DNA of 37,869 nucleotides, taken from positions 1-37,869 of the forward strand of contig CAYWRF010000002.1 of NCBI GenBank assembly GCA_964460495.1, in the 5' to 3' direction. The notes below the pieces were generated by a model. The model did not search any database and was not told where the DNA came from. It was given only the letters and a program-made list of their open reading frames with translations. Shown in pieces: positions 1 through 36,804 of the stretch. Each line of letters starts with the position of its first letter. Within the stretch, counting starts at the first letter, position 1. Source of the DNA: an uncultured Pseudomonadota bacterium. GTDB taxonomy: Bacteria > UBA10199 > JACPAL01. The position numbers were made by a program, and so were the translations under genes.

Positions 1-532
1 CGACACAGGGGGCGTCACACCGATGGATCTGATACTGGAGGCAGGGGCGGGTCCGGTTGATCAGCTCCTGATCGGAACAGGTCCGGAGCCGGAAGTGTGT
101 TTCAATAAAATCGACCGTCTCCCGACAGGCGACGGCCGAGGAGTACGGTCCAAAGTAGCGGGAGCCGTCCTTCCGGATCTGGCGTGTGACGTAGAGCCGC
201 GGGAACCTGTCTTTGATGGAGAGCTTCAGGGAGAGGTAGCTCTTGTCGTCCCGGAGCTGGATATTGTATCGGGGCCTGTTCTTTTTGATCAGCGTATTTT
301 CAAGGAGCAGCGCCTCTTTTTCATTCTCCGTTACGACACAATCGATATCCCTGACCTTCTTCATCAGAGAGGCGATCTGGTATCGCCCCTCCCTCTTCTT
401 GCCGAAGTAATTGGAGATCCTCTTCCTGAGGTTGACCGCCTTCCCGACATACAGAACCCGACCGCTCTCATCCTTCATCAGGTAGACCCCGGGTGTTGTA
501 GGGAATTGTGACGCTTTCTCTTCGAGTCTCAT
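1..532 (-). CDS. uvrC: excinuclease ABC subunit C (UvrC), N-terminal part; gene continues beyond window start
   Basis: Minus-strand frame open from ATG (revcomp of cat 530-532) to window edge; translation MRLEEKASQFPTTPGVYLMKDESGRVLYVGKAVNLRKRISNYF...RPRYNIQLRDDKSY = GIY-YIG nuclease domain plus Cys-rich UvrC region. Absent from the supplied ORF table because it has no stop codon in the window. Confidence 0.85.
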   Translation of the reverse strand, partial: MRLEEKASQFPTTPGVYLMKDESGRVLYVGKAVNLRKRISNYFGKKREGRYQIASLMKKVRDIDCVVTENEKEALLLENTLIKKNRPRYNIQLRDDKSYLSLKLSIKDRFPRLYVTRQIRKDGSRYFGPYSSAVACRETVDFIETHFRLRTCSDQELINRTRPCLQYQIHRCDAPCV

Positions 533-556
533 GTGGGGAGTATAGTAATGGGAGTG

Positions 557-575
557 GTAAGAGGCCATCTCTTAC
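557..575. promoter_or_regulatory. hairpin GTAAGAG-gccat-CTCTTAC flanked by direct GGAGTGG repeats, between the PilZ stop and the uvrC start
   Basis: 7-bp stem; GGAGTGG at 551-557 and 576-582; no U-tract. Confidence 0.25.
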
Positions 576-586
576 GGAGTGGGGAC

Positions 587-1063
587 TTAATGAAGGTACC
601 GCGACGGCGTTCTGTCTCCGCCGATGATCCGGGACATCTGGTCAAAGACAAACTGGAGAAAGCGTTTCTTGTCCTGTTCCTCCATCGTCTTGATCACCGC
701 CCCGGTCTCGAAGCTGGTCTCCGAGATTTGGGACTGCCAGACCACCTCCCCGACCGCCCGGATCGGGATCGACTCCTCATCCTCCAGCAGGATCTCAAGA
801 TGCAGGATCGACCCGTTCTCCAGCCGATGAGGGGTCATCAGCCTCAAGCCCCCTGCGCTGATGTCGTTGCTCAGGGTCTCGGAAAATTCGCTGATTCCCC
901 CCCCGGGTCCCTCGATCGCATAGCTGACTGAAAGGGCGAGATCGAGGCGCGCATGCCTTCGTCTCTCGATATCAATGGATCGTGTTTCCACCCTCAAAGC
1001 AAACCACTTATCGGAAGGGGCGTCAAGGAGTTGCGCGGAAAAGAAAAGGTGCAGGTTCACCAC
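587..1063 (-). CDS. PilZ domain protein (c-di-GMP binding type)
   Basis: 158 aa; RRRHAR and DISAGGLRL motifs match the PilZ RxxxR / DxSxxG signature. Confidence 0.65.
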   Translation of the reverse strand: MVNLHLFFSAQLLDAPSDKWFALRVETRSIDIERRRHARLDLALSVSYAIEGPGGGISEFSETLSNDISAGGLRLMTPHRLENGSILHLEILLEDEESIPIRAVGEVVWQSQISETSFETGAVIKTMEEQDKKRFLQFVFDQMSRIIGGDRTPSRYLH

Positions 1064-1098
1064 CTGCCCCTTCCTGATTTTGTAGACGGTCTCGCTTT

Positions 1099-1455
1099 TT
1101 ACCAGCGTTGACGTCCGCCAAAGTCATCGCGGCCACGGCCACCGCCGCCACCACCACGACCGCCGCGACCACCGCCACGGCCGCCGCCAAACCCGCCCTC
1201 ACGGGGGGCCTGGGGACGCGCCTCGGCGACTGTCAGGGCCCGGCCTTCGCAATCCTTCCCGTTCAATTGGGATATTGCGTTGGTCGCCTCCTCGTCTGTC
1301 GACATCTCGACAAAACCGAAGCCCTTGCTCCGGCCCGAGTATCGATCCATGATGACTTGCGCCGACTCGACCGTTCCAGCCCCAGCAAACATCTGCTGGA
1401 GGGTCTCATCGGTTGCACTGTAGGGGAGATTCCCTACGTAGAGCTTCTTACCCAT
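1099..1455 (-). CDS. glycine-rich RNA-binding protein with a single RRM domain
   Basis: 118 aa; RNP2 LYVGNL and RNP1 KGFGFVEM; C-terminal RGG/GGRGG tail; SD AAGGAGG before ATG. Confidence 0.9.
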   Translation of the reverse strand: MGKKLYVGNLPYSATDETLQQMFAGAGTVESAQVIMDRYSGRSKGFGFVEMSTDEEATNAISQLNGKDCEGRALTVAEARPQAPREGGFGGGRGGGRGGRGGGGGGRGRDDFGGRQRW

Positions 1456-1577
1456 ACGACCTCCTTAGCTTGGGGTGCCGCGGACGCTAAAGAGGCCCAA
1501 AACCACTTCGGTACTCTTACGGCGAGCGCACTCCAAAACAGCCCGATCATCCTATCCTGTGGTAAAAAAGTCAACTG

Positions 1578-1599
1578 GAGAATCACGGGAGAATCACGG
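1578..1599. repeat. perfect tandem 11-mer GAGAATCACGG x2 abutting the -35-like TTGACT upstream of the RRM gene
   Basis: Direct repeat with 11-bp period located 3-24 bp upstream (gene orientation) of TTGACT at 1570-1575. Confidence 0.5.
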
Positions 1600-1642
1600 G
1601 TGTGGAGGGCGATAGAAAGACAAAGAGTCCCAATTTCACGGG

Positions 1643-2779
1643 TCAGGGCCTCACGCATGTCGCAACAACATCAGAGATTGTGACAGGGCAGGCGCCCACC
1701 AAGCAGGAGTCAGATTCAAGATCCTCTTCATGCGCGAAGCGGTAAAGAATCCCCCCCGCTGAATTAATAGCTATTCTGCCATCACACGAGAAGTTTCCAT
1801 TTGTGTTGATCAAATTCAAGGAGCCATCGACATAGCGATAGAGATTACAGGAAGAGGTTACCAGAGACAGATTCCCGGCCGATTGCAAGACAACCAGGTA
1901 CAAATCTCCGGTCGTCTCATCAATGACGGAGCCTCGAATGCAACCTCCATTCAAAGATACCGGTTCTCGAATGTCACTGCTGCCTTCACGGACGAGGAGA
2001 GAGCAGACAGGAGGGCCACCCGAAGCCGTCAAGTCAATTCCACGGTTGATAGAGATGAAAAGCCTGTCCCGAACAGAATCATAGAGAAGAAGGGTAGCTC
2101 GGTTCTCTTCTCCAATTTGTTCCCAGCTCCCGTCATTAACACGGCAAGAAATGCCGGTGTTATGGCTGATACAGGTGAAAGGATCCGATCCCTTCGAGTA
2201 AGCGACAGCACTCTCTCCACGAAAATTGGTCGAAGCAGGTGAAATATCCTCCCAATCCCGCTCCGGCTTCTTTCGATAAAATCCAGATTGATAATTGGCG
2301 TTCAGACAGTTGGCATACAAAATATTCGTGTCCTTATCTAAGGTAGGAGTTCTGCAACCAAATGGCTGGCTCCCCGATGCGAGACTGGTCGCTGTTTTTT
2401 CGGAGAGGTCGAGTTCGACAATATCCGTCGAGGAGCCGAATAAATTCGATGTGCCGAAATAGAGCCTTGACCCCGAGGCGTCAAGGATCGCAGATTTTAT
2501 TGATTGCCCCTCCTCCCCCTCATATTCATACACCGTATCCCAATGACCGTCTCCACGGGTGCGGAAGATCTTGCGGCCAGCGACGTGGTACAAGAGGTCA
2601 CTTGTTCCATCGAACAGGAGAATCCCGTCGGTTAGACCTTGTTCAGCGACAGAAAGACTCCTGTTTGAATCGGCGTTATCGCAGAGGTTCGAAGCGGCAG
2701 AAGGAATGGGACCGGGTAGCCGATCTGCGTCTTTGCAGCCCAGGAATGAAAGCAGGATGAATAGTAATAGTTTTTTCAC
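1643..2779 (-). CDS. Cys-rich predicted lipoprotein, possible BNR/Asp-box-like beta-propeller; function unknown
   Basis: Best start is GTG at 2779, giving MKKLLLFILLSFLGC (lipobox LGC). The GTG overlaps the TGA stop of the upstream giant ORF (GTGA). Two DGxW motifs (RGDGHW, NDGSW). The supplied ORF begins at TTG 2797, inside the upstream gene. Confidence 0.7.
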   Translation of the reverse strand: MKKLLLFILLSFLGCKDADRLPGPIPSAASNLCDNADSNRSLSVAEQGLTDGILLFDGTSDLLYHVAGRKIFRTRGDGHWDTVYEYEGEEGQSIKSAILDASGSRLYFGTSNLFGSSTDIVELDLSEKTATSLASGSQPFGCRTPTLDKDTNILYANCLNANYQSGFYRKKPERDWEDISPASTNFRGESAVAYSKGSDPFTCISHNTGISCRVNDGSWEQIGEENRATLLLYDSVRDRLFISINRGIDLTASGGPPVCSLLVREGSSDIREPVSLNGGCIRGSVIDETTGDLYLVVLQSAGNLSLVTSSCNLYRYVDGSLNLINTNGNFSCDGRIAINSAGGILYRFAHEEDLESDSCLVGACPVTISDVVATCVRP

Positions 2780-5700
2780 ATCCTCACCAAACTGCAACCA
2801 CCAATCCCGACAAACTGGTAACGGTCGCCCTGGAGATCTCCCGACTCATCGGTCGCAGACGGTATTTCTGAGCCGACATCCGATGAAGCGGGAACGTCCT
2901 CTTCTTCTGTATCCGAGACAGACTCCAGCGTCGGCGTCTCCTGATTATTCGGTGTTGCCTCCAGTGTCGGCACCAAATTCCCTCCTACACCGGTATCATC
3001 GTAGACCTTCTCCGGTTCCGGTGAACTCCCCTTCAGTACCACGATGGTATTGACCCCTACAACGGTATTGGAGAGAACGCGGAGCGTCGCGTCATACTGC
3101 GCCGGTTCATTTGGAGCGAAGCGTACGGTCAAGCTTGCCGATTCTCCGGGAAGAACCGTCACAGAGGAGGGTCCTGCCGTAAAGGCAGATCGGCTGATCT
3201 CAAGACCAGTGACTTCCAACGGCTCATTGCCGTCATTCTGGATAGAGAAGATCCGTTCCGTTGAATCCCCCATCGCAACGGACCCGAAGTCGATTTCTGA
3301 CGTGGAAAGATGAAGTTCGGAATAAAAGGCATTCAAGACAACGACATGCACCGAATCGGTCGCGCTGTTTCCGGTCTGATCGGTGACGGTGACAAGGAAC
3401 TTCAGGAGTGTGTCAGCGGTCACGGAAGGTGCGGTAAAGACCGGTGTGGCAGAGGTCGGATCGTCCAGGGTGACCGTGGGGCCTTCCAGCTGCCTCCATT
3501 CAAATGTGAGGGTATCTCCCTCATTCGGATCGCCGCTGGCCGTTGCATCCAGGATGGTTGAAAAGCCCTCATCGGCACTCTGATCCGGACCGGCATCGGC
3601 CCTGGGGGCAAGTGCCCCATTCACGACGATGATGCTGACATCCTGACTGACGCTGTTTCCGTCCCGATCAGTTGCCGTCACGGTCAAGGTATGACTCCCC
3701 AGCGGCAATGTGACACCTAACGAATGGCCAGTTCCTAAGGGGCCCTCCAGGTCCGACTCCCACTGGATCGAATCGTCGGGGATGGGCCCATCCTCCGGAT
3801 CAAACGCCTCTGCCTCCAGGGTCACATTCGTTCCATTGAAGATGGTTTGCCCTTCTGCCGGTGATAGGATGACGAGCCTAGGGGGCTTTGAGGTAACACG
3901 AAAAGGCTGGGAATCGACCGAGGTCGTGTTGAAACCATCGGTCACGACGACCCGGACGACCGCGCGATCGCTTCCACCCAGTTTCGCTGTGTCGTACTGG
4001 AGGGAGGCTTGGTGCAACTCAACGCCAATCGTCTCAAATACCTCCCCCCCATTGATACTGTACAGCACCGAATAGCTTAATCGGTCACCATCTTCATCGG
4101 TTGCCGTCCATGCGACGTTCAGCATCCCCTGAACGAGACCTCCACCCTGAGGAGAGGTGAGGGTCACAACCGGTGCGTGATTCGTTTTGGATCGTTCAGC
4201 GATAACCTGCCCCCCTCTGATAAGCTGGATCTTTTCTACCCCCTCCAGATCCGGCAAGATCAGGTTAAAGGTAAAGGTTTTCTCATTGTTTCCCTCAAAG
4301 CCGGTCATCCCTCCCGCATCGACAAGCGGAAATTCAAAGATAAGATTGCCGCTTGCATCGATCGCGCGGACCAAGACAGAGTTTCCCTCCGAGGTTTCTT
4401 CAACAGAATCCGGTATGGAATCAGTTTGATAGATCGGCTGGATCTCTCCAGCCCCTTCGGGAGAGATCGAGCCGGCTACGAGCAGCGAGGGAATCGTTGC
4501 GACGCCGGTGCAGTTAAGGATGTGCCCACAGCCGCGGGCATTGGCGGGATCAGCAAGACGGGACCTCAGACGTTCAAAGAGAAACTGGTAGCGTTGCGGA
4601 TGGACCCATCGACGGTAATTGCCGGACTGTGACGGGTTAGTCGGCTTATAGGCCATGAAATCGATAGCTCCCGAACCGGGACAATTCGCAAGATTTGAAG
4701 AAGTGCAGGTAGACCAGTCAGCGGCTGACACTGGCAGGATCGTTTCTTTTTCCTCGGTATCAAAACCGACTTCAGAAATGGTTCCCATGTCGGTGGTGTG
4801 GTTGTCAGTATAACCACCGGGGCAATGTTCGCCAACAGACTTATGGGTATGACAGAGGCCGTAGGTATGGCCGATCTCATGGGCAAACATCTGCTCCGCG
4901 TCTGTCGGGTTGGACATGCCCATGCCGACTCTGCCGGGGATATCCTCGGCCCAACCTGATGCTGAATAATCAAATGGATACCAACCAAAGGTACGATCAG
5001 GTGGGGTGACATTACCAAGATGGGAGGCAAAGAAAAGTACCACCAATACCTTCTTATAATTACCGAGGGTAATGTCCCAGCCTACGGCTAGCGGAGGACG
5101 ACGGACATAGGTGATGCCGGAGAGCGGAAAGATCTTCTTGAAAAGCTTTGTCCCGTCCACCATGGCGGATACAGATGGAAGGGGACGGCCCAAAATTGAA
5201 AGAGGAATATAGTGAATTCTCGGCTGATAGTTGTTCCAAAACGTGGACGACCAGGCAAACAGATTATTTTGGTAATCACTCTCCAGATGACGGGCGACTC
5301 GAGCCCCAGTCGCCGGATTGATCTCTAGCCGGAATTCCACATTGACGGAGTCCGAACACGATCCGCACTGGGTCATATAGCCCGGCACGTGGAAGTTAAG
5401 CGTGTGGTTGACGGTTCCCCTGTCCGGATTGGGGACGACGTCGATCGGGCCGTTTTGCGATTGCAAGGGGGAGCCGTAAACCTCGTTTCCCGAACGAAAG
5501 ACGCGTAGAATCCCATCAACATTACGGATCGTATCATCGTCCATCGGCGCCATCCCGCCAAAGCTGTTTTGCCCGGCAAAGAGCTCTGCGTCGATAAAGA
5601 CCCGCACCTCGGTCGGTTTGCTCGCAACAAGGGGAAGGCTGTTATCGGTGGTTTGTATCGCCTGCGTCACCTCGAAATTCGAGACAGTCAAATCAAGTGC

Positions 5701-28511: not shown

Positions 28512-28829
28512 TTATGACTCTAAGACTCCCAACACATCCTCTTCCTTGACGATCAAATGCTCTTCCCCCTCAATCTTGACCTCTGTCCCTGAGTATTTGC
28601 TGAAGAGGATCTTCTCGCCGACCTTGATTTCCAGAGGAACGACCTTCCCGTCATCGAGGACCTTCCCCTTTCCGATCGCCACAACCCTTCCCTCTTGAGG
28701 TTTCTCCTTGGCGGTATCCGGGATGATAATCCCCCCCTTGGTCTTCTCCTCTTCGTTCAATCTTTTAACAAGGATCCGATCCTGAAGCGGCCGGATCTTC
28801 ATCTTTTTTTGATTCTGGTTTGTTGTCAT
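28512..28829 (-). CDS. groS: co-chaperonin GroES
   Basis: 105 aa; [14 protein letters not shown] core preceded by a 9-aa N-terminal extension; SD AAGGAGG before ATG 28829. Confidence 0.95.
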
Positions 28830-28913
28830 GGAACGCCTCCTTTACTTAAGTTATTGTTAATAAAAAACTTTTCTGTTGACCGAATCGCCCATTTCTCCTT
28901 CAAAAGCGGCGGG

Positions 28914-28941
28914 AATATAGTCATTTTAACCGCCTTGTCAA
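28914..28941 (-). promoter_or_regulatory. groES promoter TTGACA-N16-TATATT
   Basis: The -35 sits inside CCCCTTGACA (also sigma32-like CCCTTGAA); leader roughly 80 nt; no CIRCE-like inverted repeat (TTAGCACTC-N9-GAGTGCTAA) found in the leader. Confidence 0.5.
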
Positions 28942-28953
28942 GGGGTGATCTGA

Positions 28954-29040
28954 CAGGTTGTTGATAAAGGCCCATCTGCGGCGCCTTGCATCTGGGACCT
29001 TTCTCAACAGCCTGGAGAATCATCGTTTGTCAACAAACTT
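28954..29040. mobile_element. internally deleted copy of the 150-bp MITE-like element
   Basis: CAGGTTGTTGATAAAGGCCCATCTGC-ggcgccttg-CATCTGGGACCTTTCTCAACAGCCTGG-agaatcatc-GTTTGTCAACAAAC = both subterminal inverted-repeat ends plus the terminal 14-mer, with the internal region missing. Confidence 0.6.
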
Positions 29041-29073
29041 GCCAGGATGGGTGATATGACAGTAAGTAACTAA

Positions 29074-29223
29074 GAGGTTGTTGACAAAGTGGGTATGAAA
29101 GGATGTTGAGAAAGGTCCCAGATACGAGGCAGGCCGCTGAGGCGCGACGCAGGCGTACTTGACAGTACGTCGAGGAGCGACCGAGGCGGCCAACGAAGTA
29201 GATGGGCCTTTGTCAACATCCTG
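29074..29223. mobile_element. 150-bp MITE-like element copy, flanked by 4-bp direct repeat CTAA
   Basis: CTAA at 29070-29073 and 29224-29227; ends GAGGTTGTTGACAAAG … GGGCCTTTGTCAACATCCTG; same architecture as copies at 33890 and 35901; ends 6 bp before the mnmE ATG. Confidence 0.7.
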
Positions 29224-29229
29224 CTAAGG

Positions 29230-32864: not shown

Positions 32865-33401
32865 TTATCGTAGTCTTGTGGCCTCCCCTTCCTCCTCCCA
32901 ACCGATCTTTTCCAGGAAATCATCGTAACTGCCGTTAAAAACTTCCGCCGTCCCGTGTTGGAACAGCACGAGGCGCGTAGGAATCTCCCTCAGGATCATT
33001 TCGCTGTGGGTGACAATGACGACGGCCCCCTCAAACTCCTTGATCCCTTCAATGAGTGCCTCAATCGATTGCATATCCAGATGGTTGGTCGGCTCATCGA
33101 GCAACAGGAGGTTAGGGCTGGAAACCAGGACCTTGGCCAGGTTCAGCCGGATCTGAAAGCCGCCGGAAAAGGTGGAGGGTGGCTTCGCCATATCCTCCTC
33201 GACAAAACCCAGCCCAAAGAGGATCCGCTCCACTTTGTAGTGGTCCCACTCTTCCCCTTCCGGCAGACCGAGACACCCCTCTTCCAGAACGGTCGGTTGC
33301 GTAAAATGGATGTGCTGGGCCAAATGCCCAATCCGGTAGTTACGGGGGACGGAGATCTTTAAGGATTTGAGGGCCGTAGGATTTGTAGAGATTCTGAATG
33401 C
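32865..33401 (-). pseudogene. 3' remnant of an ABC-F family ATPase gene (C-terminal part of an ABC domain only)
   Basis: Frame open from the TAA at 33402-33404. It encodes …RIGHLAQHIHFTQ… (Q-loop), FSGGFQIRLNLAKV (signature), LLLDEPTNHLD (Walker B) and VTHSE (H-loop). No Walker A and no upstream coding frame. The supplied ORF begins at an internal TTG. Confidence 0.6.
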
Positions 33402-33416
33402 TTAACATGTGATTTA

Positions 33417-33785
33417 CTACACTTCGGAGAATCGTTCGGTCAGGAAGCGGATAATATCGGCGGATTCATACATCCACTGCGCGGTGCCATCCTCCTTTTC
33501 AATTCGAAGACAGGGGACCATCGATTGTCCTCCCTGTTCGACAAGTTCCTTTTTGTATTGGGGATTGTTTTTGGCATCTCGAGTCTCAATATTGAGACCC
33601 AGCCGTTTTATTGTAAAACGAACCTTCACGCAAAAAGGACAGGCCTTGAACTGATAGAGGGTCAGTCGCGCGGTTTGTTGATCTATCTTCACCTGTTCTT
33701 CAGGAGAACGCCGAATCCCATTCGGTGAAAAAAGCACCTCGATGAGCAGGATAATTCTTCCCAAAATCCAGCGGATAATTTTCAT
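33417..33785 (-). CDS. membrane-anchored glutaredoxin-like protein (CPFC active site)
   Basis: Start at ATG 33785 (MKIIRWILGRIILLIEVLF TM segment); CPFC; GGQSMVPCL; the supplied ORF begins at an upstream GTG. Confidence 0.7.
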   Translation of the reverse strand: MKIIRWILGRIILLIEVLFSPNGIRRSPEEQVKIDQQTARLTLYQFKACPFCVKVRFTIKRLGLNIETRDAKNNPQYKKELVEQGGQSMVPCLRIEKEDGTAQWMYESADIIRFLTERFSEV

Positions 33786-33850
33786 GAGGCGAGCCCTATA
33801 TCCCGCGGATTCAGAGAAGGCAAGTGACGTCGACGTGCCTGGCACCGAGT

Positions 33851-33889
33851 ATTAGGGGACACATTAGGGGACGTTGTTCACCAAGTTAA
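33851..33889. repeat. left arm of a long imperfect palindrome: ATTAGGGGAC x2, GTTGTT, GTTAAC
   Basis: The reverse complement matches 34064-34103 (ACAACGTCCCC[T/C]AAT..GTCCCC[T/C]AAT plus GTTAAC); the two arms enclose MITE copy B. Confidence 0.6.
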
Positions 33890-34039
33890 CAGGATGTTGA
33901 CAAAGGCCCATCTGCTGCGTTGCCCGCGGCAGGCCCTCCTTGCGGCGTACAGCAAGTACGCCTCAGTCGTGCCTTTGCGGGCGCCTTGCATCTGGGCCTT
34001 TCTCAGCATCCTGGGAAAACATGGTTTGTCAACAAACTG
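33890..34039. mobile_element. 150-bp MITE-like element copy B, flanked by TTAA (GTTAAC reconstituted on both sides)
   Basis: CAGGATGTTGACAAAGGCCCATCTGC … GCATCTGGGCCTTTCTCAGCATCCTGG-gaaaacatg-GTTTGTCAACAAACTG; TTAA at 33886-33889 and 34040-34043; 146/150 identical to the reverse complement of copy C. Confidence 0.75.
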
Positions 34040-34063
34040 TTAACTTAAATAGGATTTGAGTTA

Positions 34064-34103
34064 GTTAACGTAGTAAACAACGTCCCCCAATCCGTCCCCC
34101 AAT
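34064..34103. repeat. right arm of the long palindrome (GTTAAC, ACAAC, GTCCCCCAAT x2) in the bcp 3' region
   Basis: See 33851-33889. Confidence 0.6.
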
Positions 34104-34106
34104 CCC

Positions 34107-34556
34107 CTAAAGTTCCCGCAGCAGCTTGAGCGATTCTTCGACGTGGCGGGCAGGGTTCCACTGGGAGGAAAAGGAGTTCCGGACCACCCCGTTCCGGTCG
34201 ATCACCAGGGTCACCCGGCCCGGGAGCAGACCCCAGGTTTTTGGAATCCGATAAAGTTGCCGGATCTTGCCCTGCTGGTCGCTCAGCAGGAGAAAAGGCA
34301 ACCGGTGTCGCCCCGCGAATTTTTTGTGGGTTTCGGGGGGATCAGAACTGATGCCGATCACCTCGACCCCCGCCTTTTGAAACTGTTCATAATGATCTCG
34401 AAACGTGCAAGCCTCTTTGATGCAGCCGGGGGTCTCGTCCCTGGGGTAGAAGAAAATCACCACCGGGCGCTTCCCTTTGAAATTGGAAAGTCGCGTCAAC
34501 TTGCCATCAGCCGATGGTAGTTCAAAATCAGGCGCCTGGTCTCCCTTCTGGATCAT
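34107..34556 (-). CDS. bcp: thiol peroxidase Bcp/PrxQ (peroxiredoxin)
   Basis: 149 aa; PVVIFFYPRDETPGC (peroxidatic Cys context); thioredoxin fold. Confidence 0.9.
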   Translation of the reverse strand: MIQKGDQAPDFELPSADGKLTRLSNFKGKRPVVIFFYPRDETPGCIKEACTFRDHYEQFQKAGVEVIGISSDPPETHKKFAGRHRLPFLLLSDQQGKIRQLYRIPKTWGLLPGRVTLVIDRNGVVRNSFSSQWNPARHVEESLKLLREL

Positions 34557-34580
34557 TTTAACGGGTGGATCGCTGCCCCA

Positions 34581-34596
34581 TTCGACTTACGTCGAA
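34581..34596. promoter_or_regulatory. 16-bp palindrome TTCGAC-ttac-GTCGAA in the bcp / zinc-ribbon divergent region
   Basis: 25-40 bp upstream of the bcp ATG; candidate operator. Confidence 0.3.
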
Positions 34597-34745
34597 TGCG
34601 GACCCCATCCCCCCGTACCCCTTTCGTTCGGACCGGCGAAGCCGGTTCCTCACTCACATGGCAACCCCACTTAAATCACTTGGCACCGATTTTCACTACC
34701 TTTTTGTCTTGATTCTTTTTCACGGGACACGCAGCATGCCGAGCC

Positions 34746-35000
34746 GTGAAGCTGCTATTGATCCTCCTGATTCTTTACGTTTTCTACCGGCTCTTTCTCC
34801 GGTTTCTGCCGGGGTTGATTCGTCTTGGGATGAAAGGGGTCCTAAAAAAGGGGGGTGAGTCACGGCAGGGGGAGGCACACGATATGGCCCCCTGTTCCCG
34901 TTGTGGAACCTACATGAGCCGGGACCTCGCGCTTGCCCAGTCGGGGGAATACTACTGTAGCGAGAAATGTCGGAATGAGGGCTCGACAATCGCCCCCTAA
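34746..35000 (+). CDS. small membrane protein with C-terminal zinc-ribbon (CxxC…C…C), PP0621-like
   Basis: 84 aa; GTG start; TM helix KLLLILLILYVFYRLFLRF; CSRCGTYMSRDLALAQSGEYYCSEKC; SD AAGGAG lies downstream before the SPFH gene, so the two likely form an operon. Confidence 0.5.
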   Translation: MKLLLILLILYVFYRLFLRFLPGLIRLGMKGVLKKGGESRQGEAHDMAPCSRCGTYMSRDLALAQSGEYYCSEKCRNEGSTIAP

Positions 35001-35048
35001 AGGCTGTAGGACACGCTCGGTCTTCAAACAAACCAAAAGGAGAACGCT

Positions 35049-35900
35049 ATGAATGGAAATGGCGAAATCATCGATTTGCAGAATGCAATGAAGAAACTGA
35101 TTCCAAAGGGAAACAAGAAGCTTCTCATCCTGGCGGCCATCCTGGGCCTCTTGATAATACCCAAGTCGATCACCGTGATTCCGGCAGGGCATGTCGGGCT
35201 CAAGGATTTCTTTGGCAGGGTATCGGATGAGACGCTCCCGGCCGGATTGCACCTCGTCAACCCGTTGCTCAGAATTCATAAGATGACGATTCGAACGCAA
35301 GAACTCACGGAAGAGGCGAACGTTCCCTCTAAAGAGGGTTTGAGCGTGCATCTGGATATCTCGCTCTTGTTCAGCCTGAATCCCGATAAGGCGGCGCAGG
35401 TTTATAAGACGATCGGCCCCGACTACATTCGTGTGGTGGTTGTGCCACAGCTTCGGTCGATTGTACGGGGGGTCACCGCCAGCTACGAGGCCAAGGCGCT
35501 CTATACGGCGGAACGGGAGGCGATTTCCACCGAGATGTTTTCGCACCTGCAGGCACCCCTGCTGGAGCGTGGGATGACGGTGGAAAAGGTGCTGTTGAGG
35601 AGCGCCACCCTGCCGGTCATTCTCGCCACGGCGATCGAGAAAAAGCTGGAGGCGGAACAGCAGTCGGAGCAGATGAAGTTCGTCCTGAATAAAGAGACCC
35701 AAGAGGCGCAGCGGAAGAGGATTGAGGCGCAGGGGGTCGCCGATTTCCAGAAGATTGTGACGGCGGGACTCAACGATGCATTCCTCCGCTGGAAGGGGAT
35801 CGAGGCGACCGCCAAGCTGGCCGACAGCCAGAATAGCAAGGTAGTCGTGATCGGCAGCGGCAAGGATGGATTGCCGATCATCCTGGGGGGAAATCCCTAG
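35049..35900 (+). CDS. SPFH/band-7 (prohibitin/HflC-like) membrane protein
   Basis: 283 aa; N-terminal TM then SPFH domain; coiled-coil C-terminal part; SD AAGGAG. Confidence 0.85.
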   Translation: MNGNGEIIDLQNAMKKLIPKGNKKLLILAAILGLLIIPKSITVIPAGHVGLKDFFGRVSDETLPAGLHLVNPLLRIHKMTIRTQELTEEANVPSKEGLSVHLDISLLFSLNPDKAAQVYKTIGPDYIRVVVVPQLRSIVRGVTASYEAKALYTAEREAISTEMFSHLQAPLLERGMTVEKVLLRSATLPVILATAIEKKLEAEQQSEQMKFVLNKETQEAQRKRIEAQGVADFQKIVTAGLNDAFLRWKGIEATAKLADSQNSKVVVIGSGKDGLPIILGGNP

Positions 35901-36050
35901 CAGTTTGTTGACAAACCATGTTTTCCCAGGATGTTGAGAAAGGCCCAGATGCAAGGCGCCCGCAAAGGCACGACTGAGGCGTACTTGCTGTACGCCGCAA
36001 GGAGGGCCTGCCGCGGGCAACGCAGCAGATGAGCCTTTGTCGGCATCCTG
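35901..36050. mobile_element. 150-bp MITE-like element copy C, flanked by CTAG
   Basis: CAGTTTGTTGACAAAC-catgttttcc-CAGGATGTTGAGAAAGGCCCAGATGC … GCAGATGAGCCTTTGTCGGCATCCTG; CTAG at 35897-35900 (contains the SPFH stop TAG) and 36051-36054. Confidence 0.75.
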
Positions 36051-36072
36051 CTAGAAACCGAGGGGTACCTTG

Positions 36073-36804
36073 ATGCGAGTCAGTAGCGTCGTCTTGGTCT
36101 CCCTCCTTTGGATCTCCGCAAGCGCTTGGGCTGGGGGAGTCAAACCAAAGTACGGTCTCCACGCGACGGTCCTTTCAGAATCCCATGACTTCTTTCGTCG
36201 AAACAAGGCACCCGACTTCTGGGCCTTGATCCCGCATTATGCAGCGCAAATCAACGAAAGGGCCTGTTCGGTTGCGAGTGTCGCGATGGTGATCAACGCG
36301 GCCCGTGCCGGCCAGGACCTTTCTTCAGACGAGAGGCTGGTGACTCAGCAGGAACTCCTGCAAAGAGTCGACGGCCCGTTTTGGAGAGAGGCGGTCGGGT
36401 CCTCCGGTCATGGAGTCACGCTCGCCCAGCTGGGAGCCCTGGTTGCAAAGGCGCTCAAGGCCTACGGACTGAAGGGGTCAGTGGAGGTTGTCACGATAAA
36501 AGACACTTCCAACTCCTCAAAAAAGGCCTTCCGCGAGGCACTCAAGGTCAATGAGATGTCGGCGGGCGGCTTTCTGATTGCCAATTTTTTGCAGGGGTCA
36601 CTCACGGGTGACGCGATGGTGGGGCATATCGCCCCGATCGGCGCCTACGATCAAAAGAAGGGGGCTGTCCTGATCCTCGATCCCGATCGGGAGTGGTACG
36701 AGCCGTATTGGGTCGGAGAGGAAACGCTCCTTTCTGCGATGGCAACCCGGGATGAGCGGTTTGGCGAATATCGCGGCTACATCATTCTTTATATCCCCTT
36801 GTAG
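36073..36804 (+). CDS. secreted phytochelatin-synthase-like papain-fold protein (bacterial PCS/C83-type; likely glutathione-processing)
   Basis: ATG 36073 (the supplied ORF starts at TTG 36070); signal peptide; CSVASVAMVINA (catalytic Cys context) and GHIAPIGAYDQKKGAVLILDPDREWYEPYWV, matching PCS GHFSPIGGY…LILDVARFKYPPHWV. Confidence 0.65.
   Translation: MRVSSVVLVSLLWISASAWAGGVKPKYGLHATVLSESHDFFRRNKAPDFWALIPHYAAQINERACSVASVAMVINAARAGQDLSSDERLVTQQELLQRVDGPFWREAVGSSGHGVTLAQLGALVAKALKAYGLKGSVEVVTIKDTSNSSKKAFREALKVNEMSAGGFLIANFLQGSLTGDAMVGHIAPIGAYDQKKGAVLILDPDREWYEPYWVGEETLLSAMATRDERFGEYRGYIILYIPL

Follow-up and report, generated by a model that had tools for sequence, protein, structure and literature searches.

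Two inverted MITE copies around bcp and an SPFH gene are probably separate insertions of a young subfamily, with no dedicated inversion machinery

Invertible DNA segments such as fimS, the hin/gin-type segments and the Bacteroides invertons are bounded by short dedicated repeats, rely on a tyrosine or serine recombinase encoded nearby, and in most cases flip a promoter or the alternative ends of a gene. The locus that we describe here, in a window of 37,869 nucleotides from an uncultured Pseudomonadota bacterium (the window being the whole stretch of DNA that was analyzed), resembles them in that inverted repeats flank a DNA segment. Unlike invertase-driven segments, however, it has dispersed transposon copies as its repeats, no recombinase in the open reading frames (ORFs) scanned, and one orientation seen. 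The locus also resembles chromosomal inversions mediated by IS or MITE copies, where inverted mobile-element copies are longer than the minimal recombination segment; those inversions, on the other hand, are sporadic rearrangements, and none is documented between the two copies at this locus, which we call B and C.

Among the small mobile repeats of bacteria, Correia and RUP duplicate TA. The repeated element at our locus has a small size, terminal inverted repeats, target duplications and a stable hairpin in common with Chunjie (Geobacter uraniireducens), Correia/CREE (Neisseria), ERIC and RUP and, as in those families, there are many intergenic copies, size variants, and insertions beside or inside operons (PMC10969869). 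On the other hand, it has no detectable sequence relationship to any of them: a search for known RNA families in Rfam gave no match, whether at the gathering threshold or with the limit set at E ≤ 1. It also differs from known bacterial MITEs in its three-end architecture, a hairpin plus a tail that carries a third end motif. With the IS5 group (IS5 family), whose target-duplication motif is 5'-YTAR-3', it shares a 4-bp duplication of the YTAR type, here TTAA, CTAG, CTAA and TTAG (PMC5009759); in contrast to that group, the copies here are without a transposase gene, and the search for an autonomous element with such ends yielded none. Small size without a transposase gene, terminal inverted repeats, fixed-length target duplications and multiple dispersed copies place B and C in a MITE family, apparently undescribed, which is a further one of the bacterial kind and has an IS5-like YTAR target.

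The element is 150 bp long and consists of an imperfect 124-nt hairpin and a 26-nt tail. Its terminal inverted repeats (left end CAGGATGTTGACAAAGG; right end, as the reverse complement, CAGTTTGTTGACAAACC) are the outer arms of the hairpin, CAGGATGTTGACAAAGGCCCA and its complement, and a third, internal copy of the end motif, CAGnnTGTTGACAAA, sits in the tail. The RNA fold of copy B has an energy of −78.8 kcal/mol (z = −6.4), and the hairpin of the element is very stable (z = −6.4 and −7.4). In 20 copies from several MAGs and metagenomes, the hairpin is retained via compensatory changes at 6 pairs, and substitutions track base-pairing, not codons. The element contains only short ORFs of 42–49 aa, which begin within the conserved end motif; none is a transposase gene. 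Hairpin-only variants also exist (e.g., L015). A promoter and terminator scan of the elements gave no signal above shuffled expectation.

Copy B aligns to the reverse complement of copy C with exactly 4 mismatches in 150 positions (8, 9, 19 and 117 of B), the number given in the original prediction for this locus. Their match inside the window has a BLAST E-value of 4.6e-74, an inverted-repeat search pairs them as 156-nt arms that are 96% complementary with a spacing of 1855 nt, and they have perfect blocks of 97 bp (the longest) and 33 bp in common. Each copy has a matching duplication on both sides, which bears out the earlier claim that B and C have their own target duplications (TTAA versus CTAG) and are independent insertions, not a composite transposon. 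The gene content proposed for the 1.86-kb segment between them, with bcp on the minus strand and the zinc-ribbon and SPFH genes on the plus strand, was confirmed by Pfam, the zinc-finger matches being only weak (Table 1). A glutaredoxin (grx) gene lies on the left flank of B and a phytochelatin-synthase-like (PCS) gene beyond C; the look-up of the latter protein returned no record.

Table 1. Coordinates of the MITE copies, their target duplications and the neighboring host features in the window.
Feature	Position	Strand	Remarks
MITE copy A1	28954..29040	+	Internally deleted 87-bp derivative; no recognizable target duplication; upstream of groES
Target duplication of A2, left	29070..29073		CTAA
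MITE copy A2	29074..29223	-	150 bp; older subfamily, ~77–80% identical to B; ends 6 nt before mnmE start codon
Target duplication of A2, right	29224..29227		CTAA
Host hairpin downstream of bcp, left arm	33851..33885		Copy B lies within the loop
Target duplication of B, left	33886..33889		TTAA
MITE copy B	33890..34039	+	150 bp; hairpin 33890–34013 (124-nt); tail 34014–34039 (26-nt) with third end-like sequence GTTTGTCAACAAACTG
Target duplication of B, right	34040..34043		TTAA
Host hairpin, right arm	34064..34103		Hairpin interrupted by B; ends 4 nt from bcp stop codon
bcp-type peroxiredoxin (AhpC/TSA)	34107..34556	-	Pfam PF00578, E = 5e-40; 3' end toward copy B
Divergent intergenic (promoter) region of bcp/zinc-ribbon	34557..34745		Inside the segment
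84-aa Cys-rich (CxxC...CxxxC) small protein ("zinc-ribbon" gene)	34746..35000	+	Pfam zinc-finger and metallothionein matches weak, below curated cut-offs
SPFH/Band 7 (prohibitin/HflC-like) gene	35049..35900	+	Pfam PF01145, E = 1.6e-27; copy C adjoins 3' end
Target duplication of C, left	35897..35900		CTAG; TAG is the SPFH stop codon
MITE copy C	35901..36050	-	150 bp; orientation opposite to B; tail 35901–35926; hairpin 35927–36050
Target duplication of C, right	36051..36054		CTAG; 18 nt upstream of phytochelatin-synthase-like gene (ATG at 36073)

Perfect 4-bp direct repeats, all YTAR, flank 6 of the 7 complete copies checked: TTAA at B, CTAG at C, L038 and L032, TTAG/CTAA at A2, and CTAA at L014. 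The remaining copy, L020, is flanked by CTAA/CTAG. An uninterrupted target paralogous to B's site, AAGTTAACTTA, occurs in L023 at about 2915–2985. No orthologous empty site for B or C was found among the loci of SPFH homologues at 83–89% identity (P0002, P0003, P0005, P0008 and P0019), because the loci of those relatives lose synteny beyond the zinc-ribbon/SPFH pair. The flanks were also considered as TA duplications (IS630/Tc1-like), a reading that we rejected because the bases beside CAG...CTG differ among near-identical copies and match as 4-bp repeats (in A2, the non-palindromic TTAG/TTAG).

How would such an element move? Its insertions fall into 4-bp YTAR sites and duplicate them, which implies a DDE transposase that an autonomous element would supply in trans. 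An IS5-like transposase is the putative mobilizer, an assignment for which the target duplication is the sole basis. The element ends begin with CAG, unlike the GG/GA that we take to be usual for IS5-group elements. A search of ~400 kb of loci (no long-spaced end pairs), plasmids and viral contigs found no autonomous partner with matching ends. Since YTAR contains TAA or TAG, insertions frequently fall on or beside stop codons, and the duplication restores the stop. Such a target permits insertion at gene ends and inside operons without loss of reading frames. Copy C came to lie exactly at the SPFH stop codon in this way; B landed in the loop of the hairpin just downstream of bcp. This host hairpin is inverted repeat I4 (40-nt arms, 83% complementary), and its region folds at −50 kcal/mol when B is removed in silico. 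With bcp and the SPFH operon divergent, one insertion took place at the 3' side of each, and the inverted arrangement is a matter of chance, as two independent insertions end up inverted in 50% of cases. The arrangement of the pair is probably neutral.

The window contains 4 family members, where chance would give zero matches to the family pattern. Every copy is intergenic, and many adjoin stop codons or gene 3' ends. Furthermore, the B-type subfamily occupies at least 9 distinct sites (distinct right flanks) in the same population, each copy 0–3 changes from one consensus, and the contigs that carry these copies match the tetranucleotide signature of the window (r = 0.87–0.97). Copy B is one change from the subfamily consensus (A117G) and copy C has three private changes (T8C, T9C and C19T), so the four B/C differences are one change private to B and three private to C. 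To judge from these comparisons, the near-identity of B and C is the product of a recent transposition burst from one master sequence and not of exchange between B and C, because so many sites lie so close to one consensus and the differences are private to one copy or the other. Recent transposition or gene conversion had been proposed as its cause; the star-like sites speak for transposition, while conversion between B and C is not seen, the diagnostic sites being unmixed and each copy having gained a further private SNP in other samples (33949 in B and 35988 in C). We put a probability of roughly 85% on B and C being two separate insertions of a young non-autonomous (MITE) subfamily, near-identical through a burst and with no dedicated inversion machinery. 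They are an ordinary pair of MITE insertions, unsurprising to mobile-element specialists. Many metagenome contigs of this lineage end inside the repeat, and the family is thus a repeat that breaks metagenome assemblies of this lineage.

Could recombination between B and C invert the segment? The minimal recombination segments are 23–27 bp for RecBC and 44–90 bp for RecF (PMC12074656), and the inverted repeats contain perfect blocks above them; MITEs are, in addition, recognized recombination hot spots (PMC10969869). Given 97 bp of perfect identity in the longest block, nothing physical stands in the way of a rare RecA-dependent inversion; this potential is real but generic, and no flip was observed. 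The original prediction was right that the repeats are long enough to serve as substrates for homologous recombination; the flip that it expected to follow did not appear, as the contigs hold only the native orientation. Two contigs span both copies (L001 and L002), two span C (L003 and L004), and one joins the left flank to the B alleles TT/C/G (L057), all in the native arrangement. Every contig that covers an entire copy has this one orientation, across four samples, although these are consensus assemblies from which a minority inverted subpopulation could escape. The four diagnostic B/C SNPs are unmixed in all informative contigs, with each copy gaining SNPs of its own. The recombinant junction (left flank of B, 146–154 nt, inner flank of C) had 0 matches in metagenome contigs, a search of low power because the family scan showed what seems to be only one partial contig of the locus in that collection. 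One feature could point the other way: C8 of copy C and G117 of copy B would pair within one copy, which a past crossover of compensated and master copies could explain. G117, however, is also present in copies at two other sites (L025 and L031) and is therefore a subfamily variant, not a crossover product. On balance, it is quite unlikely that RecA-dependent recombination between B and C flips the 1.86-kb segment in part of the population. A programmed phase-variable element, driven by a site-specific recombinase, is exceedingly improbable, as it has only the geometry of inverted repeats around genes in its favor. No recombinase, integrase, invertase or transposase Pfam domain was found among the 30 scanned ORFs, which take in the long ORFs of the whole window, the repeats are a dispersed multicopy element with its own target duplications and not short dedicated sites, and all assemblies have a single orientation. 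Moreover, the segment contains the divergent promoter region, which is not at a boundary; therefore, a flip would neither activate nor silence these genes. It would presumably alter only the downstream read-through partners, with bcp reading toward the phytochelatin-synthase-like gene and the SPFH operon toward the glutaredoxin gene. The possible invertible segment of the original prediction thus finds no confirmation, and the annotation is rid of a false lead, a phase-variable switch around bcp and the SPFH gene.

The other alternatives concern what B and C do together with their neighbors. MITE-bounded composites are known, e.g., TIME-COMPs (PMC13367494), and mobilization of MITE-flanked stretches can occur (PMC10969869), but there is next to no chance that B and C bound a composite transposon that moved the bcp, zinc-ribbon and SPFH genes as one unit. 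The outer flanks differ (TTAA left of B and CTAG right of C) and form no one shared duplication, each copy being matched on both sides by its own. A second copy of the 1.86-kb unit was not seen, and the pairing of the Cys-rich and SPFH genes is conserved without MITEs in a relative (L053). Another reading is that the hairpins were co-opted as 3'-end RNA elements (stabilizers or terminators) of bcp and the SPFH operon, their placement being selected. In its favor, both copies lie just past stop codons and face the same way with respect to the gene upstream, many other copies adjoin gene 3' ends, and the very stable hairpin is maintained by compensatory changes. Nevertheless, the stop codons within the YTAR target alone account for placement at gene ends, and the compensatory changes in palindromic transposon ends can stem from transposase recognition or intrastrand repair. 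The orientation relative to the upstream gene is tail-first in 14 copies and hairpin-first in 6 (our own tally, an automated count of 13:6 plus copy C, which that count missed), a bias that is not significant by our own calculation. In addition, the hairpin has no T-run following it, none of the elements gave a hit in the terminator scan, and, with C placed 18 nt upstream of the following gene in what looks like an operon, termination there would do harm. We therefore regard a selected 3'-end role as very unlikely.

Beyond the separate insertions that we favor for B and C, the recent burst and the presence of the family in several uncultured lineages make it a possible marker of strain history and horizontal exchange. 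A broader idea, unlikely in our estimate, is that the 124-nt hairpin is more than selfish DNA and may be under structural constraint, having spread by horizontal transfer among distant uncultured lineages and been kept beside gene ends; B and C could then recombine from time to time, with bcp and the SPFH operon trading their read-through partners. Hints in this direction are the six compensated pairs, the copies that this genome shares at 90–91% identity with a MAG in which groEL is only 72% identical, and the family members that also occur in MAGs labeled Nitrospira and Deltaproteobacteria.

We observed that the two near-identical inverted copies of the repeat, B and C, do bracket the bcp, Cys-rich (zinc-ribbon) and SPFH genes, as first described, the genes being confirmed with Pfam. 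Copy B differs from the reverse complement of C at only 4 of 150 positions (8, 9, 19 and 117, counted along the unit in the B orientation). The match has an E-value of 4.6e-74 (BLAST within the window), and for this pair an inverted-repeat search of the window gave arms of 156 nt with 96% complementarity and a spacing of 1855 nt. The view that B and C are independent insertions also held, as each copy has its own target duplication, TTAA at B and CTAG at C; a composite transposon was rejected on the same ground, its outer flanks being unlike. Two independent insertions come to lie in inverted arrangement in half of cases. A 152-aa ORF (32865-33323, minus strand) matches just the C-terminal half of the profile for an ABC ATPase domain (positions 74-137 of 137) and may be a truncated gene or have a mis-called start.

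Features of the B/C locus and of the other family copies in the window
Feature	Coordinates	Strand	Flanks, setting or basis
Copy B	33890-34039	+	TTAA both sides, 33886-33889 and 34040-34043
Copy C	35901-36050	-	CTAG both sides, 35897-35900 and 36051-36054
AhpC/TSA (bcp-type) peroxiredoxin	34107-34556	-	Pfam
84-aa Cys-rich protein	34746-35000	+	Pfam, zinc-finger matches, all weak
SPFH/Band 7 protein	35049-35900	+	Pfam
Glutaredoxin-like gene	33417-33845	-	outside the B/C pair
Phytochelatin-synthase-like gene	36073-36804	+	outside the B/C pair
Copy A2	29074-29223		150 bp, groES-mnmE intergenic region; CTAA both sides
Copy A1	28954-29040		groES-mnmE intergenic region; internally deleted

In the 150-bp unit, an imperfect hairpin of 124 nt (folding as RNA at -78.8 kcal/mol, z = -6.4; opposite strand z = -7.4) is followed by a 26-nt tail that includes GTTTGTCAACAAAC. 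One motif occurs in three versions: CAGGATGTTGACAAAGG at the left end, CAGTTTGTTGACAAACC at the right end on the opposite strand, and CAGGATGCTGAGAAAGG internally. The family pattern matched four times in the window, against none expected by chance, and a scan of public collections recovered 33 metagenome loci and 8 loci in three MAGs ('Deltaproteobacteria bacterium RIFCSPLOWO2_02_FULL_50_16', 'Nitrospira sp. Bin_29_2_1' and a groundwater 'Deltaproteobacteria'). Given its small size, terminal inverted repeats, fixed-length target duplications, lack of coding sequence and many dispersed copies, the element is a MITE, and it works like the classical bacterial MITEs Chunjie, Correia, ERIC and RUP (reviewed in PMC10969869). 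The one defining feature not found is a matching autonomous IS; none with matching ends turned up in the recovered loci, plasmids or viral contigs. Rfam gave no match for the element region, even at E <= 1, and we found no published description of this particular family. Variants include a hairpin-only form that has no 26-nt tail (L015, 3018-3145; flanks TTAG/CTAA), a ~154-bp form with a tail-type motif at each end (L011, 7276-7429), and a diverged relative that keeps the family core and has different termini, GAAACCTCTCAAAAAGTCCCA (L014, 287-443).

RNAalifold, run on 20 aligned copies (from the window, three MAGs and several metagenomes), found 33 pairs. Compensatory double changes occur at 6 of these (for example, A-U/C-G at columns 5/128, G-C/A-U at 25/107 and C-G/G-C at 34/99), showing that the palindrome is maintained. 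This upkeep is compatible with any of three readings: recognition of the two ends by the transposase, transposition or repair that depends on the hairpin, or a role at the RNA level.

Perfect 4-bp direct repeats flank six of the seven complete copies checked (TTAA, CTAG three times, TTAG/CTAA, and CTAA), and the seventh is flanked by CTAA/CTAG. All seven conform to YTAR, reported as the target-duplication motif of IS5 (PMC5009759), so that the element shares its target duplication with the IS5 group. A TA duplication was excluded because the bases adjoining CAG...CTG differ among near-identical copies and match as 4-bp direct repeats; the match persists at the non-palindromic A2 flanks. A paralogue of the sequence interrupted by B, with uninterrupted AAGTTAACTTA, is present in L023 (one of the recovered loci, numbered L) and supports insertion of B into TTAA. 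Since YTAR includes TAA or TAG, stop codons lend themselves as insertion sites, and duplication of the target restores the stop. The SPFH gene ends at the TAG supplied by the left CTAG of C, and several further copies begin 0-7 nt from a stop codon. With C removed, only 18 nt separate the SPFH stop from the ATG of the next gene, so C inserted within an apparent operon. Copy B occupies the loop of a hairpin with 40-nt arms, which starts 4 nt past the bcp stop (arms 33851-33885 and 34064-34103, with tandem ATT(A/G)GGGGAC motifs). This hairpin may represent another family of small repeats, as L023 carries a ~60-nt paralogue of the left arm plus loop (~2915-2985) upstream of a HipB/HipA-like pair. 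Relative to the gene upstream, the family's copies split 14:6 in orientation (computed as 13:6, with copy C, where a spurious ORF overlapping the SPFH gene had hidden it, added by hand), a bias that is not significant by our calculation.

Could recombination between B and C flip the segment, as the original prediction proposed? Five metagenome contigs that encode an identical SPFH or bcp protein align collinearly with the window (99.85-99.92% identity). Of these, L001 and L002 run through both copies and L003 and L004 through the whole of C; in L057 the glutaredoxin flank continues into B positions 1-120, which have B alleles at all four diagnostic sites. The arrangement is native in 5/5 contigs and B and C alleles are never mixed, in consensus assemblies that are compatible with a minor inverted subpopulation. 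A search of JGI metagenome contigs for recombinant-junction patterns gave no match, a weak negative since that collection seems limited to one partial contig of the locus. Recombinase, integrase, invertase and transposase domains were absent from the 30 ORFs scanned, among them the long ORFs across the window. The pair differs from invertase-type switches: a recombinase and dedicated short repeats are both missing, and a single orientation is seen. The invertible segment is unsupported. The segment itself encloses the divergent bcp/zinc-ribbon promoter region (34557-34745), so a flip would leave the bcp and zinc-ribbon/SPFH genes unswitched; we infer that it would merely exchange the downstream read-through partners, glutaredoxin versus phytochelatin-synthase-like gene. 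What stands is that the repeats are long enough to serve as substrates, although the flip itself was seen in none of the five contigs. Their perfect blocks measure 97 bp and 33 bp, and the minimal segments quoted for RecA-dependent recombination are 23-27 bp and 44-90 bp (PMC12074656). With the longer block above these minima, and MITEs being recognised recombination hot spots (PMC10969869), a rare B/C inversion could in principle occur, as it could between any two inverted copies of a mobile element.

The near-identity of B and C had been ascribed to recent transposition or gene conversion, and the data favor the former. B-type copies occur elsewhere (L020, L024, L025, L031, L035, L037, L038 and L041), in samples that also yield 99.9%-identical copies of the window, and, with B and C included, have at least nine distinct right flanks. 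The tetranucleotide signatures of most of these contigs correlate with the window at r = 0.87-0.97 (0.69 for the short contig L024), compared with 0.5-0.78 for other MAGs. Each copy is 0-3 changes from a single consensus: B carries one (A117G, common to L025 and L031) and C three private ones (T8C, T9C and C19T), so that the four differences are 1 + 3 independent changes in a star-like tree. In other samples, B gained 33949 A>G and C gained 35988 C>T. Judged from these changes, B and C are diverging independently, and their near-identity points to a recent burst from a single master sequence, not B-C conversion. Positions 8-9 of C are CC at 36042-36043 (33897-33898 in B), and position 117 of B is G at 34006 (35934 in C). 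C8 and G117 within one copy would form a compensated pair, whereas the actual copies are mismatched there (C·A or U·G). This pattern could be the trace of a past crossover, but G117 is present at two further loci, which makes coincidence more likely.

A2-type copies (window 29074-29223; L014 733-889; also L011, L013, L016, L017 and L018) are 90-91% identical between the window genome and the RIFCSPLOWO2_02_FULL_50_16 MAG, the groEL of which is just ~72% identical at the DNA level. Each genome has one A2-type copy, flanked by a CTAA duplication, upstream of groES, and the far flanks are not syntenic; this comparison suggests that the element spread horizontally or is under strong constraint. 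Upstream of groES the relative carries a canonical CIRCE operator, TTAGCACTC-N9-GAGTGCTAA (L014 ~1020-1050); none was found at 28830-28953 of the window, even with 3 mismatches allowed. A sigma-70-like TTGACA-N17-TATATT, judged by eye, adjoins copy A1. In L040 (Ga0209399_10012012), positions 1-3681, the groES-A1-A2 stretch of the window (28603-29227, 100% identical) is joined to sequence flanking a different A2-type copy (that of the L048 locus), and the first 280 nt are unrelated sequence fused within groES. Chimeric assembly through the repeat is the most likely origin of L040, though the contig may reflect real recombination between A2-type copies. Many metagenome contigs of this population (L020-L050, from sample Ga0114945 and others) end inside the element, examples being L024, L025, L031, L035, L037, L041, L045-L047 and L003-L005, which makes the MITE family a main cause of assembly breaks in this organism.
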